Part shown: positions 203-7,166 of the stretch, in pieces | Numbering within the stretch: the first letter of the stretch is position 1 | How the letters are laid out: every line of letters begins with the position of its first letter | Virus record (IMG/VR): IMGVR_UViG_2737471853_000005 | Coordinates: 1-7,166 of that record | Direction: 5' to 3' (one strand) | DNA from: a virus | Taxonomy: Duplodnaviria; Heunggongvirae; Uroviricota; Caudoviricetes | Length of the DNA stretch: 7,166 bases | Notes under the pieces: model-generated | The model's database searches: none | The model's input: only the letters and a program-made list of their open reading frames with translations | What the model was told of the DNA's origin: nothing | Made by a program: the position numbers and the translations under genes

Positions 203-1414
203 TCAGCTACCTGAGCCAGTGCTGAAAGAGCCATACACGAACGCTTCAGGGCGTTTGACGGCCAGCGCCAGACGTTCTTCGCAACGGATGGTGATCATGT
301 TTTTCTCGAAGTCGTCGGCGTTCTCCGTGGAGATAACCACGTTCGCATCTTCGCGGTCGAAGATTTGCGCGCCAGCGTTAAATACACCGGTCAGGAATTT
401 ACCCTGGAAGGCTGCCGCTTCCGTTGCAACAACTGGCAGGCCCCACAGAGTCGGACCAGTCAGCGCCGCAGGGTTCGCCAGAATGTAACGACCCAGGCTG
501 TCTTTGGTCAGCTCGATCCGCGCCCAGTCAATGAAGTGAAGAACATGACCAGATGCCGGGAAGCGTGCCAGCTGTGCCTGCAACATTGCCAGTCGCAGAT
601 CGTCAATCCCGCTCTGCTGTTCGACAGTGAACGCCGGATTGAACGCTGACGCCTGAGGAACGATGCCGTGCAGATGAACGCCGGTACCGTCACCGAAGAG
701 AATTTCCTGCTCTTCTGCATACTTCAGCCCGTAGCGCATTTCGGCATCAACGGTGGACTGCAACTGTGCGAAGTCATCCAGGATCTGCTTTGAGGCTTTG
801 AACAGGTGGGCAATGGTGCTGACGCCAGTGATTTTCGGCGTGAACTCAATTTCGCTGTATGGTTTCTGCGTATTTTCAGGAACCACTTTCGCGTTATTGG
901 TAAAGCCTGTCTGCTGCACCCAGAAAATAGCTGAGGATGACGTACGGCCTGGAGCAATCAGATCGCGGATGAACAGGCGCTGTTTCGGCGCCGTATCAAT
1001 ACCCGGCAGGCGCTGTGGCTCCACAACACCATCAGGCACATCCACCGAAGTCAGGGCAGCCTTAACCGGGATGCTGATGCGCTTACCGCCTTCCACGCTG
1101 GAAGCAAAGGTTTTCAGGGCTTCAGCGGAGATCACCTGGTGGCCAACGGACTCGACAACCTGTTTCGCGTTTGCCAGCGGCATCTGGGCAACATGTTGCT
1201 CCAGTTCGCCCATTGCGGCCTTCAGGGTTTTTTCAGCTTCACGCAGCGCATTGAACTCAGAAGCCATTTTATCAACGGCAGCTTTTGTTTCTTCTGACAG
1301 CCTGCCTGACTTCTGCGCCTCTTTGAGTGCGTCTTCTGCTTTCGCGTTGAATTTGCCGGTTGCCTCTTCAATGCTGGCAGTGACTTTTTTCAGAATTTCG
1401 TTTACTTCAGACAT
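203..1414 (-). CDS. Major capsid protein, HK97 family (with N-terminal delta/scaffolding domain)
   Basis: 403-aa ORF; ATG at 1414-1412 with AAGGA SD overlapping the upstream stop; C-terminus ...KNMITIRCEERLALAVKRPEAFVYGSFSTGSGS closely resembles HK97 gp5 (...KNMLTILCEERLALAHYRPTAIIKGTFSSGS, recalled from memory); N-terminal ~110 aa Ala/Glu/Lys-rich and coiled-coil-like, as in the gp5 delta domain; stop TGA at 205-203. Confidence 0.95.
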   Translation of the reverse strand: MSEVNEILKKVTASIEEATGKFNAKAEDALKEAQKSGRLSEETKAAVDKMASEFNALREAEKTLKAAMGELEQHVAQMPLANAKQVVESVGHQVISAEALKTFASSVEGGKRISIPVKAALTSVDVPDGVVEPQRLPGIDTAPKQRLFIRDLIAPGRTSSSAIFWVQQTGFTNNAKVVPENTQKPYSEIEFTPKITGVSTIAHLFKASKQILDDFAQLQSTVDAEMRYGLKYAEEQEILFGDGTGVHLHGIVPQASAFNPAFTVEQQSGIDDLRLAMLQAQLARFPASGHVLHFIDWARIELTKDSLGRYILANPAALTGPTLWGLPVVATEAAAFQGKFLTGVFNAGAQIFDREDANVVISTENADDFEKNMITIRCEERLALAVKRPEAFVYGSFSTGSGS

Positions 1415-3589: not shown

Positions 3590-5325
3590 CAGAAACCTAC
3601 CATGATGGGATTATTGAAGAATCCGGAGAGATCCTGCTGGTCGTTGCCACCGTTAACCAGAACGCGGCTCATTGCTGTGAACAAGGCCGCAGGGCCATCA
3701 ATCTTGGCCTCTGGTGTGGACTTATTCGGGAAAATGTTCTCGTTCCGGTCCGGTTTGACGGTTACGTTAGACATCATCCAGTTCATCACCGGGTGATCGC
3801 TGTGATGGAAGCGGCCACCGTATACCAGCGCTTCGACCTCTTTCATCGCCTCAGAGAAATTGCGAACCGTCTGCGGCACTTCCACCAGCGGCAATCCTTC
3901 TTCTGCCAGCGCAAGGCTGAACTGCGTCGCACTCCACGGATCGAAGCCAATTTCTTTCAGGCTCTCACCAGCAACCCACAACTGTAGCTCTTCCTTAATC
4001 TGAGCATGGTCGATTACATCACCGTCGGTAAGGATCAGCTTGTCCATCCCGGCCCACTTACGATAGAGCTCTGCCATCTGGCGTGAACATTTCTCAAGGC
4101 GTCCTTCCGGTAGCCAGAATTTGAAATCCGCATGAACGTGGCCATCTGGCGCGCGCCAGACTTTAGCGGCCGCACAGATATCAATTTTGTTTGACAGGTC
4201 AACGCCCACCCAGGAGGGATAGGTTTTAAGTTCGTGCTGCGGGGCGATAAACTCGCATTTCTCCCATTTCATCATGTCCATCCAAGCTGACTCAGCGGTA
4301 ACCCAGATATTCATGTGCTTAGTGAAAAAGTTGATTCTGGCCGAAACCTGCTCTTTCGCCTTTTTAGCCAGGCGGCGCAGGTCATCCCAGCGCTTACAGA
4401 TACCCAGCCCCGGATTCGCCTTCTGCCAGACTTTTTCATCAAAGGGATCGTCACCTTCATCTAAGGTGTAGATGATGGCAAAAAACGTATCGTCTTTAAC
4501 CAGGCCGCGCAGGACCTTGATTGCGTAATCGCGTAGTTCGTAACAGATACCTTCTTTGTTGAAGCCGGCGGTGGTGATACCGAAAAGCAGCGATTGCAGG
4601 CGCGCGCCGGTGGCCGTCTCCAGAACGTCCCAAACGTCACGGGTTTTGTGAGCATGCAGCTCGTCGACGATGGCACAGTGGATGTTCAGGCCGTCGAGGT
4701 TGTTCGCATCTGATGATAAAGGCTCGAATTTGGAGGCCGTTTGCTCCTGGTAGATAGCGAGCTTGTTGAATTCGAAGATCCGCCCAAGAGTGGCTTTCGC
4801 CTTCTTGACCATATTCTTCGCGTCTTCAAAAACAATTCGTGCCTGGTCTCGGGTGGTTGCAGCGGAATAAACCTCCGCACCGCCCTCGCCGTCGGCGCCA
4901 GCCATATAAAGCCCCACGCCAGAGCAAAGCGTTGATTTAGCATTTTTACGAGCCACCTCAACATCTGCTGTCCGGAAGCGCCGAACCATTACTGGACGAC
5001 CGCTGCCGTCGTTACGCAAAACGGTTTCTCCCGTTTCTTCGTTAACCAGCGGGATCACGAAACCAAAAATATTAATCAGGATGAAAACGTGCCAGTCCAT
5101 CAGCTCAATAGGCTGCCCTGCCAGTGCGCCTTTTACGTGAGGTACAAAATTATAGAAATTCAGAATGTGCTGCGCGCGCGGTTCACTGAAGAAAATACCG
5201 CGCTCTTCGCCGTGTGCCAGATCGTCAAGAAAACGCTGGCAGGCAAGGCGCACATACTCACAGGCAATAATCTCCCCAGCAACCACCCTCTCGGCGTAGC
5301 GGATGCCTTCTGCAACCTTCGCCAT
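3589..5325 (-). CDS. terL: Terminase large subunit (ATPase/nuclease)
   Basis: 578-aa ORF; located between terminase small subunit and portal; start ATG overlaps terS stop (TAATG at 5327-5323) with GAGGGA SD inside the terS 3' end; length and overall sequence character typical of terminase large subunits. Confidence 0.9.
   Translation of the reverse strand: MAKVAEGIRYAERVVAGEIIACEYVRLACQRFLDDLAHGEERGIFFSEPRAQHILNFYNFVPHVKGALAGQPIELMDWHVFILINIFGFVIPLVNEETGETVLRNDGSGRPVMVRRFRTADVEVARKNAKSTLCSGVGLYMAGADGEGGAEVYSAATTRDQARIVFEDAKNMVKKAKATLGRIFEFNKLAIYQEQTASKFEPLSSDANNLDGLNIHCAIVDELHAHKTRDVWDVLETATGARLQSLLFGITTAGFNKEGICYELRDYAIKVLRGLVKDDTFFAIIYTLDEGDDPFDEKVWQKANPGLGICKRWDDLRRLAKKAKEQVSARINFFTKHMNIWVTAESAWMDMMKWEKCEFIAPQHELKTYPSWVGVDLSNKIDICAAAKVWRAPDGHVHADFKFWLPEGRLEKCSRQMAELYRKWAGMDKLILTDGDVIDHAQIKEELQLWVAGESLKEIGFDPWSATQFSLALAEEGLPLVEVPQTVRNFSEAMKEVEALVYGGRFHHSDHPVMNWMMSNVTVKPDRNENIFPNKSTPEAKIDGPAALFTAMSRVLVNGGNDQQDLSGFFNNPIMVGF
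3883..3890 (-). other. Chi octamer (5'-GCTGGTGG-3' on minus strand)
   Basis: Exact ccaccagc on plus strand at 3883-3890. Functional only if the host uses the E. coli-type RecBCD Chi sequence. Confidence 0.5.
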
Positions 5326-5798
5326 TAATCCCTCGCTTTCATAAACTCGGCCAGCGGGTCAACCGCATCAGGACCTTTTGCATTCACTTTCGTGCGGCTG
5401 GCTGGCGTCATGCCGAACTCACCAAGCATGGCGCGCAGACGTTTCCAGGCATCAGCTTTCATGATGGCGGCGGGGTGAGCCTTGATCAGCACATCCCCGC
5501 TCTGCGTTTCGGTCCGGTAGGTATAGCCCTCAACTTCAAGCGTGTCGCAGTGATGCCGGTATTCGGTATAAGCCTCAACCAGCAGTTCAAGGGCTCTGGC
5601 GTCCAGCTGAGACATCACACCGATAGCATCAAGCTCGTCGGCCATCCGTTTAAACCAGTATTTCCCCTGCTTGTCGAAATGCTTCGGCGTTGGGGGTACC
5701 CCTGAAGGGGGTTTTGGTTCGTTCTCATTGATCGGGCGTTTAGATGGGTTCCCCCTCACCAAACGTAGATGGGTCGGGGTTTTCGGTGGTCCAGACAT
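5325..5798 (-). CDS. terS: Terminase small subunit, P27 family
   Basis: 157-aa ORF; N-terminus MSGPPKTPTHLRLVRGNPSKRPINENEPKPP and C-terminal FGMTPASR match the conserved pattern of P27-family small terminases (RGNPGKRP.NENEP...FGLTPASR); AGGAG SD 9 nt upstream of ATG 5798-5796. Confidence 0.88.
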   Translation of the reverse strand: MSGPPKTPTHLRLVRGNPSKRPINENEPKPPSGVPPTPKHFDKQGKYWFKRMADELDAIGVMSQLDARALELLVEAYTEYRHHCDTLEVEGYTYRTETQSGDVLIKAHPAAIMKADAWKRLRAMLGEFGMTPASRTKVNAKGPDAVDPLAEFMKARD

Positions 5799-5955
5799 AA
5801 TCGAAAACTCCTATTAATCATCGAGTGGGGGACCCCATAAAAAAGTTTTCTAACCTGCGGCGATGTGAAAAGAGGTTGGGCGGCGGTCCTTTGGCGCGTC
5901 GTTCCTGAACTTTCAACCCGCCCTCCCCCTCGGTCGATTCAAATGAGAATTGATG
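5799..5955. other. Candidate cos / packaging-initiation region (intergenic, between HNH endonuclease and terminase small subunit)
   Basis: Only sizeable non-coding gap in the operon (157 bp), at the position where HK97-like phages carry cos. Contains GGGCGGCGGTCCT (5878-5890), resembling the lambda cosN cohesive-end 12-mer GGGCGGCGACCT, a polypurine/polypyrimidine GC-rich tract (5919-5934), and an inverted repeat at its edge. Cut site not determinable from sequence. Confidence 0.45.
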
Positions 5956-5966
5956 TCATTTGAGTC
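5936..5966. repeat. Inverted repeat / hairpin (gattcaaatga ... tcatttgagtc, 9-nt loop) overlapping the HNH stop codon
   Basis: tcaaatga (5939-5946) is the exact reverse complement of tcatttga (5956-5963); flanking bases extend the stem to ~11 bp with one wobble. Not followed by a U-tract on either strand. Confidence 0.6.
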
Positions 5967-6306
5967 TTTCGACCGCTGTCTTCGCCCTGTGGCAAGGCTT
6001 GCAGAGGCTTTCGAGGTTGGACAGGTCATCGGTCCCCCCATTTGCTTTGGCGGTGATGTGGTCCACCGTCTCAGCGGGTGTATACCTTCCATTTCGCAGG
6101 CATTCCTGACAAAGGTGTTTATCTCTGTCGAGAACGATTGGGCGCAGCCTGTCCCACTTACTGCCATAGCCGCGCTGATGTCGGCTCTGTCCCCGCTGAT
6201 GCTGCTGCCAGCCTTCGTTAAGGTGCTTGGGACAATAGCCTGAGCGATCTGTGGTTGTGCCGGGGCAGCCACGCTTGCGGCATGCCCTTGGTATCAACGC
6301 AGGCAT
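5956..6306 (-). CDS. HNH endonuclease (terminase-associated, cos-cleavage accessory type)
   Basis: C-terminal CQECLRNGRYTPAETVDHITAKANGGTDDLSNLESLCKPCHRAKT is a classic HNH motif (CxxC...H...N...CxxCH). Located directly upstream of cos/terS, as for HK97 gp74-like HNH proteins. I place the start at ATG 6306-6304 (GGAGG SD 8 nt upstream) rather than the GTG at 6321 used by the ORF track. Confidence 0.9.
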   Translation of the reverse strand: MPALIPRACRKRGCPGTTTDRSGYCPKHLNEGWQQHQRGQSRHQRGYGSKWDRLRPIVLDRDKHLCQECLRNGRYTPAETVDHITAKANGGTDDLSNLESLCKPCHRAKTAVERLK

Positions 6307-6310
6307 CAGG

Positions 6311-6715
6311 CTAACCTCCACGCCCTGCGGCGTTCTGTGCGTGGCGCTGAGTCAGGGTGACGTTCAACCGGTTCAACATCTGCATGGTCCACCAGCGAGT
6401 AGCACGGATAGACCACTGCGCCGCTATAGGCATCACCCACTGCATAATCAGCGCGGTTAAACTGGCGTTCTTCGAAGCAACAATGCCAAGCGATGTTTCA
6501 TGGCGACGCAACTGCACTCCGTCAGGTACTACGGCGGCAGGTTGAGAACCGTCGTCGATAACCACCACCAGCGACCCGGCTGGCAGATGCCTCAGATGCT
6601 GTTCGAGTGAACGTTTTAAAACGTCTGCGCGCTGGTGTGTCGTTATTGCAATCCCGATCCGCGATGAAATTGCGCAGACTGGTGCATACGGGACACCATC
6701 AATAATGACCTGCAT
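6311..6715 (-). CDS. Hypothetical 134-aa protein; N-terminal ~95 aa resembles the start of a family-2 (GT-A) glycosyltransferase, followed by a Trp-rich non-conserved tail; possibly a truncated or remnant gene
   Basis: ATG 6715-6713 with GGAG SD 5 nt upstream; IAITTHQRADVLKRSLEQHL...VVVIDDGSQ...LGIVASKNASL parallels GT2 hallmarks (IIPTYNR..LL.R.L.S...Q......IVVDDGS.D......G.S.ARN.G) but lacks the downstream DxD region and is far shorter than a full GT2 enzyme; stop TAG 6313-6311 lies between the SD and ATG of the HNH gene. Assignment is by eye only. Confidence 0.45.
   Translation of the reverse strand: MQVIIDGVPYAPVCAISSRIGIAITTHQRADVLKRSLEQHLRHLPAGSLVVVIDDGSQPAAVVPDGVQLRRHETSLGIVASKNASLTALIMQWVMPIAAQWSIRATRWWTMQMLNRLNVTLTQRHAQNAAGRGG
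6389..6396 (-). other. Chi octamer (5'-GCTGGTGG-3' on minus strand)
   Basis: Exact ccaccagc on plus strand at 6389-6396; same orientation as the Chi at 3883-3890. Confidence 0.5.
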
Positions 6716-6728
6716 AAATTCTCCAGCA

Positions 6729-6971
6729 TCAGTCCGTCCAGCGTGTCACAGCAATTTTCAACGTTCCTGGATTTGCGTTCCAGACCCATACCTTCAGCGG
6801 CGGATAAATTACCATTCTGTCCCTGAGGTAGTCACCGGCATTTATATCCGGGGATACGTCAGATTCCGCAAAACTGATTGCATAGCTGCCCAGAACCGTT
6901 ACCAGCGCGCTATTCGTACCATCCGTTATTTGAACTGGCTCACTACCGATTGTCATTCTTTCTGTTGCCAT
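6729..6971 (-). CDS. Hypothetical 80-aa protein of unknown function
   Basis: ATG 6971-6969 preceded by GGGGGAG SD; stop TGA 6731-6729, 13 nt upstream of the next ATG; co-directional and tightly spaced with flanking genes; no transmembrane segment or recognisable motif. Confidence 0.45.
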   Translation of the reverse strand: MATERMTIGSEPVQITDGTNSALVTVLGSYAISFAESDVSPDINAGDYLRDRMVIYPPLKVWVWNANPGTLKIAVTRWTD

Positions 6972-6980
6972 GTGCTCCCC

Positions 6981-7166
6981 CTACGCCAGTACGTATTCAG
7001 GTGTTGATGGATTGATGATAAATTTCTGCGCAGCTTCAGGTATGAGGCCATAGATAACATCAATGTGATAACCGTCCTTTAGGGTCGGCTCCTTTATCAC
7101 ATTTCCGGCCTCGTCATATTCACCGTCACTGTTATACAGAACGCCCCGCACAGAAAACTGAATAGA
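6981..7166 (-). CDS. Partial CDS (C-terminal 61 aa; N-terminus beyond window edge), hypothetical protein
   Basis: My own translation of the minus strand is open from the window edge to TAG at 6983-6981 (...SIQFSVRGVLYNSDGEYDEAGNVIKEPTLKDGYHIDVIYGLIPEAAQKFIINPSTPEYVLA*); stop lies 9 nt upstream of the 80-aa ORF start; lower GC than the structural genes by eye. Confidence 0.4.
   Translation of the reverse strand, partial: SIQFSVRGVLYNSDGEYDEAGNVIKEPTLKDGYHIDVIYGLIPEAAQKFIINPSTPEYVLA

Follow-up and report, generated by a model that had tools for sequence, protein, structure and literature searches.

What is a short open reading frame (ORF) resembling a glycosyltransferase (GT) doing directly upstream of the packaging genes of an Escherichia coli phage? 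The ORF in question, 134 codons at positions 6715-6311, lies within a 7,166-bp stretch of DNA, hereafter the window, which constitutes the entire contig JWZB01000090.1 of the E. coli draft assembly GCA_000819205.1 and carries all of its genes on the minus strand. Upstream of the ORF are two small phage ORFs assigned to PHROG 4772 and PHROG 18574. Directly downstream lies an intact packaging HNH endonuclease of 116 aa (6306-5956), followed by a P27-family small terminase (5798-5325), the large terminase (5325-3589), the portal (3589-2285), a ClpP-type protease (2272-1424) and the major capsid protein (1414-203). GenBank records the 134-aa product as hypothetical protein KIG49313.1. The original prediction had read its beginning as a family-2 GT and its end as out-of-frame sequence, and had offered three explanations: a decayed cargo gene, a junction with non-phage DNA, or a genuine short phage protein. 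As set out below, the ORF is a chimera of a GT 5' remnant and the out-of-frame 3' end of the next gene, and it is in all likelihood a non-functional deletion scar, that is, a pseudogene, of a two-gene phage GT cassette.

The two parts of the chimera can be assigned separately. Residues 1-90 match PHROG 1579, annotated as 'glycosyltransferase', with an E value of 3.7e-26 across profile positions 2-87 of 482, and more weakly PHROG 2456 (E 2.3e-11). The GT-like N-terminus thus exists as described, with the similarity ending at residue ~90 instead of continuing through the first ~95 residues. PHROGs proved to be the informative profile library for this cassette. The Pfam model Glycos_transf_2 (PF00535) stayed below its gathering threshold (E 0.021; 15.2 bits versus a cut-off of 23.3) and covered just profile positions 2-75 of 168; for the 134-aa product and its intact relatives alike, Pfam and NCBIfam returned nothing beyond such sub-threshold, generic GT2 matches. 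PADLOC gave no defence-system match and a sequence search of the PDB gave no match. By homology and by orthologous genomic position, this segment (6447..6715, minus strand) descends from the first ~90 codons of the gene for a 485-aa tandem GT-A glycosyltransferase of the type represented by mycobacteriophage Ramsey gp106.

The second part is the 3' remnant of another GT gene, a homologue of mycobacteriophage Che8 gp110, of which the last 48 codons and the stop remain (6306..6452, minus strand). Read from 6452 to 6306 in its own frame, which is not that of the 134-aa ORF and lacks a start codon, it encodes ADYAVGDAY...RRAWRLA* and matches PHROG 854, 'glucosyltransferase' (E 2.9e-12, profile positions 157-198 of 211). 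The same stretch encodes the C-terminus of the intact gene-2 protein, ...ADYAVGDAYGGAVVYPCYSLVDHADGEPVERHPDS.PRTERRRAWRLA*. With 48 codons left, the full-length PHROG 854 ORF of ~196-211 aa and its acidic motif VVVLEDDALP are absent. The 44-residue tail of the chimera is rich in Trp, Arg and Gln because gene 2 is read there in the wrong frame; out-of-frame or non-coding sequence had been suspected. The chimeric frame closes at a TAG (6313-6311) four nucleotides before the HNH ATG at 6306, again as predicted, and the TGA of the gene-2 remnant overlaps that ATG (TGATG).

A GT at this position had been considered abnormal for a late region. A survey of relatives overturns that view. The order 485-aa GT, 196-217-aa protein, HNH, small terminase, large terminase is found in Salmonella phage FSL SP-016, in two E. 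coli prophages and in coliphage HK542, and the second protein of the intact cassette belongs to PHROG 854 (E 7e-70). Comparison with related prophages had been proposed as a check, and related E. coli, Salmonella and Enterobacter phages carry the full-length 485-aa GT followed by a 196-aa GT at the very position of the remnant. The intact 485-aa GT accounts for at least 764 protein clusters in Enterobacteriaceae, including E. coli, Salmonella, Citrobacter, Enterobacter, Klebsiella and others (all 120 among the matches listed are 485-486 aa long), and matches 575 IMG/VR stretches. At 77 of the 80 viral loci examined, gene 2 and, beyond it, terminase genes come after the 485-aa GT. These terminase genes are of several types: the window's type occurs at about a quarter of the loci, and at the others the large terminase has 21-32% identity. 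In its position and orientation relative to HNH and terminase, which lie downstream, the window remnant matches the enterobacterial 485-aa GT (HK542_055, FSL SP-016 SP016_00200, WP_225395700.1), and its residues 1-90 correspond to the N-terminus of that protein at about 80-88% DNA identity. Unlike it, the window lacks residues 91-485, comprising the DxD motif, the rest of the first domain and the whole second GT-A domain.

The alignment of the window with intact relatives locates the junction precisely. The GT gene can be followed down to 6447 and gene 2 from 6452, so that six bases, GCTGAT on the gene strand (6447..6452), are common to both. This hexamer occurs at both sites in intact relatives, in the GT gene as ..GCGCTGATGGAC.. 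and in gene 2 as ..CCAGCTGATTAT.., and the contexts of the six common bases in intact phages are ..ACCGCGCTGATGGAC.. and ..AAGCCAGCTGATTAT... The missing DNA amounts to 1,620 bp with respect to the compact arrangement (L005, L049, L069 and others), 2,182 bp relative to FSL SP-016 and 2,416 bp relative to L004. GT codon ~90 is thereby joined to the last 48 codons of gene 2 with a change of frame, and the break-point falls inside coding sequence at a locus where the homologues are intact. These features carry the signature of a microhomology-mediated deletion. The closest intact relatives recovered reach 88% identity to the window in the GT part and 93% in the HNH part; complete E. coli genomes and GenBank phages yielded mosaic pieces but nothing near-identical to the region as a whole. 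Decay of a cargo gene, the first of the three explanations, therefore describes what happened, in that a two-gene cassette was mostly deleted.

Could the truncated product still act as a GT? The DxD metal/nucleotide-sugar motif, which follows beta4, lies beyond residue 90 and is absent from the window ORF. In an alignment of 51 homologues of 38-87% identity its residues D101 and D103 are invariant, as are many further residues across both halves of the 485-aa protein. An AlphaFold model of an intact 485-aa relative, which reached a pLDDT of 47.8 with 26 close homologues and 91.9 once actinophage-type homologues were added, contains two GT-A domains, the first spanning roughly residues 20-250. 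Mapped onto this model, residues 1-90 supply beta1-alpha1-beta2 (VVVIDDGS)-beta3-alpha3; beta4 is missing and the central beta-sheet is incomplete. Structure prediction had been suggested as a way to find an intact GT-A core: the model of the intact relative indicates that three strands of the first sheet are kept and the core is not. Without the DxD metal/sugar-nucleotide site the remnant cannot be a glycosyltransferase, and GT activity of the 134-aa product is excluded. Foldseek matched the modelled intact relative best to tandem GT-A enzymes (E 8e-11 to 4e-8), namely Pasteurella multocida heparosan synthase 2 (8vh7), E. coli K4 chondroitin polymerase (2z86) and human COLGALT1 (9evj), which likewise carry two GT-A domains per chain. 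With sequence identities of only 9-14% and TM-scores of about 0.3, the resemblance is one of fold and is silent on donor or acceptor.

The same cassette has decayed elsewhere. In locus L017 (2098-2565), a separate deletion of 1,599 bp runs from GT codon 108 to gene-2 codon 163 and yields a 155-aa ORF that overlaps the HNH gene. In L226 (about 4760-4789), a third deletion joins GT codon ~435 to gene-2 codon ~91. The window and L017 deletions each take out the bulk of the two genes and leave 105-147 nt at the 3' end of gene 2; that this end, with the HNH ribosome-binding site, has been retained would fit selection against deletions extending into the packaging genes. Many frameshifted or truncated alleles of the 485-aa GT also occur in Enterobacter, Citrobacter and other genomes. 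In several of these (P0007, P0016, P0017, P0022-P0026) the frameshifts are scattered over codons ~95-105, in the vicinity of the DxD motif. Such alleles could reflect real recurrent decay or sequencing error, for instance at the CCTGG site in GACGCCTGGCC.

The scar is not confined to the window. The exact 134-aa protein is present on at least 8 contigs, and about 60 E. coli and Enterobacter contigs carry between them 14 distinct 134-aa variants, all with the same junction. The junction 30-mer has 1 match in IMG/VR and 0 in GTDB species representatives. At least four prophage backgrounds carry the junction. In four of them, DNA from 50 bp upstream of the junction through HNH is 99-100% identical to the window, and in the portal and capsid genes the identity is 81-98%; in two of the four, the GT 5' part drops to 81-89% identity and the genes upstream of it are unrelated. 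The mosaic is sharp in L006, L007, L014 and L015, with the scar-plus-HNH block (5956-6452) at 99-100% and portal, protease and capsid at 81-98%. Since this block is far more alike than the structural genes, it was recently exchanged between backgrounds, and the common junction together with the pattern of identity traces the scar to one ancestral deletion later moved by homologous recombination. The cross-over site was likely the conserved ...RHETSLGIVASKNASLTAL segment. The scar resembles the decay of moron or cargo genes in prophages in having a direct repeat at the junction, a frame shift, lost catalytic residues and intact essential neighbours; unlike decay confined to one prophage, it has passed between phage backgrounds by recombination.

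These observations also bear on whether the ORF is a genuine short phage protein made of the N-terminal nucleotide-binding third of a GT and a new tail, which might, for instance, bind UDP-sugars, or whose translation just ahead of HNH might keep ribosomes coupled to the HNH start. The length is identical in all 14 variants, the allele has reached at least four backgrounds, translation from the original ribosome-binding site and ATG is probable, and the frame stays open for 44 codons past the junction to stop just short of HNH. Equal length is nevertheless what common descent from one junction in 99-100% identical DNA would give, and is not the mark of a conserved small gene. The tail is nearly invariant, which is statistically compatible with selection on it; yet its DNA has been shaped by the gene-2 frame, in which 4 of the 6 amino-acid-changing tail variants are silent, in a sample that is small and, because it was drawn from distinct proteins, biased towards amino-acid changes. 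One of the six restores a glycine conserved in intact gene 2, and the variants are better accounted for by exchange with intact gene-2 alleles than by selection acting on the new frame. Moreover, the short protein would keep just three strands of the first GT-A sheet and no DxD, the independent L017 deletion with its longer, overlapping ORF shows no convergence on this architecture, and HNH has a GGAGG of its own. A dedicated small protein, the third of the original explanations, is thus disfavoured and very unlikely.

The second of those explanations, in which a fragment of a bacterial GT2 gene recombined beside the packaging module, was right about a deletion junction and wrong about non-phage DNA. 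Pfam taken by itself, with its weak generic GT2 match, would have allowed it; both sides of the junction come, however, from one phage cassette that is intact at the same place in many phages, and the genes upstream belong to the phage families PHROG 4772 and 18574. Foreign DNA is refuted by the junction alignment and the 80-locus survey, leaving this account an exceedingly small chance. An assembly or sequencing artefact that collapsed two genes might be suspected in a short 7,166-bp draft contig, yet the identical protein with its junction turns up in independent assemblies and sequencing runs, among them contigs 306 kb and 5.2 Mb long, and in one IMG/VR contig, and we consider the probability of an artefact negligible.

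The deletion pseudogene can be given a highly probable history. The ancestor of this E. coli prophage carried the two-gene GT cassette between its lysis genes and its HNH-terminase packaging genes, gene 1 encoding a 485-aa protein with two GT-A domains and gene 2 a 196-aa GT whose stop overlapped the HNH start. Illegitimate recombination or replication slippage between the two GCTGAT copies would then have removed, in one event, everything from gene-1 codon ~90 to gene-2 codon ~148. The 5' piece now continues out of frame through the final 139 nt of gene 2, as far as the TAG 4 nt before the HNH ATG, and the scar allele later entered several prophage backgrounds through homologous recombination. 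The retained gene-2 3' end would carry the Shine-Dalgarno sequence of HNH, a putative GGAGG at 6315..6319 (minus strand), 8 nt upstream of its ATG. With this end spared, the packaging genes should still be expressed. The remnant itself is probably still translated, as a candidate GGAG ribosome-binding site at 6721..6724 (minus strand), 5 nt upstream of its ATG, is retained along with that ATG. A scan of 5700-7166 returned no promoters or terminators, consistent with read-through late transcription. The 116-aa HNH start adopted here is the one used in 881 contigs. Within the HNH gene, a 97-aa ORF runs antisense on the plus strand (5950-6243); in several public contigs (L007, L008, L010-L013) an antisense ORF of 96 aa has been called instead of HNH, which is likely a mis-annotation.

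What did the intact cassette do? A clue comes from the mycobacteriophages. The intact enterobacterial 485-aa GT is 43-45% identical over its full length to GTs of cluster F mycobacteriophages, such as Ramsey gp106, and gene 2 is 36% identical to Che8 gp110 (E 1e-26); Che8 gp108 and gp109 have no detectable similarity to the 485-aa protein. Gene order agrees as well. In Ramsey it is gp106-gp107-gp108, cos, HNH, small terminase and large terminase (L101, L265), and in Che8 gp108-110, gp111 and HNH gp112 (L099, 56171-59300), so that Ramsey gp106/gp108 and Che8 gp110 stand in the same GT-GT-(cos)-HNH-terminase synteny as the enterobacterial cassette. The two-gene cassette, at 36-45% protein identity, is thus common to phages of Enterobacteriaceae (HK542, L100) and of Mycobacterium, and in both groups it sits at the right genome end beside HNH, cos and terminase. 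Che8 gp110 is reported to be essential for capsid glycosylation (PMC12363180), and mycobacteriophage capsid and tail-tube proteins to be glycosylated (Freeman et al. 2023, as summarised in PMC11256854 and PMC10877033). The enterobacterial phages differ from Ramsey and Che8 in that their hosts are Gram-negative and the glycosylation of their virions is a prediction from sequence; the window, for its part, keeps fragments of both genes. Literature searches found no report of virion glycosylation in enterobacterial phages, or of a cassette common to them and mycobacteriophages, which is not proof of absence.

The sugars on mycobacteriophage virions reportedly sit at the C-terminal ends of the capsid and tail-tube subunits. 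Of the 12-13 structural genes of Che8 and Ramsey, just those for capsid and tail tube encode a protein with a final Gly-Ser, and both proteins have this ending in the enterobacterial cassette phages as well. No C-terminal dipeptide is more frequent than GS in the 79 enterobacterial viral loci that carry the cassette, where it closes 127 of 1,855 ORFs. The proteins concerned come from several unrelated families: the major head proteins are of at least four types (the window's PF05065 type, the HK97 type, PHROG 617 and PHROG 247), and the major tail proteins that do so belong to PHROG 158 and 584. The window capsid itself terminates in STGSGS (206..223, minus strand, at the end of gene 1414-203), a putative acceptor; it keeps the Gly-Ser end that accompanies the intact cassette in relatives, the window's own GTs having been lost. 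Among 61 close relatives of the window capsid with at least 8 kb of upstream DNA, 45 of those with the cassette have a capsid ending in GS and 2 do not, against 2 and 12, respectively, where the cassette is absent (Fisher's exact test, p = 4e-9, without phylogenetic correction). The cassette-free close relatives have capsids ending in ...PAGA or ...GGGA (loci L106-L264).

Some Gly-Ser ends lie outside this pattern. Two close relatives, L233 and L236, lack any trace of the cassette upstream of HNH and still have Gly-Ser ends on capsid and tail-tube proteins, and the HK97 capsid ends in SSGS without a cassette; these cases are either recent clean losses or signs that the motif is not strictly tied to the cassette. 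A few other ORFs of cassette-bearing loci have this ending too. The head-tail adaptor Ad1 (PHROG 40) ends in Gly-Ser in L143, L144, L163, L177 and L184 and may be a third substrate. An Rz-like spanin does so in L106, L114, L116 and L140, which may be chance.

By analogy with the mycobacteriophage genes, the intact cassette may well glycosylate virions. As an alternative, it might modify host surface glycans or DNA instead, which would leave the association with Gly-Ser ends unexplained. A weak Pfam hint of a TET-associated DNA glycosyltransferase (E 0.039) was set aside, there being no DNA-hypermodification genes beside the cassette. Our working reading, built on virion glycosylation, is that the ancestral phage glycosylated its virions and that the window lineage lost that ability. 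We give even chances to the proposition that the scar records how a system for glycosylating virions, one demonstrated only in actinobacteriophages but widespread among temperate Enterobacteriaceae phages, was lost. If it is true, the window phage would make unglycosylated virions with an orphan acceptor tail (capsid ...STGSGS), and the at least three independent deletions together with the frameshifted alleles would mean that the trait has been lost repeatedly.

Taken together, the scar itself is genuine but unremarkable, a deletion pseudogene derived from a common phage cassette, and matters little for the window; the 134-codon ORF is better annotated as a pseudogene than as a hypothetical protein. 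It illustrates how phage mosaicism can carry the scar of a deletion along with the HNH-terminase module. The wider interest lies in the cassette, which is common to Gram-negative lambdoid HK97-like phages and mycobacteriophages, has the same neighbours in both and in the latter is linked to virion glycosylation and to shielding from antibodies. Were the capsids and tails of enterobacterial phages glycosylated too, the immunogenicity of phages in the gut and in therapy would be affected.
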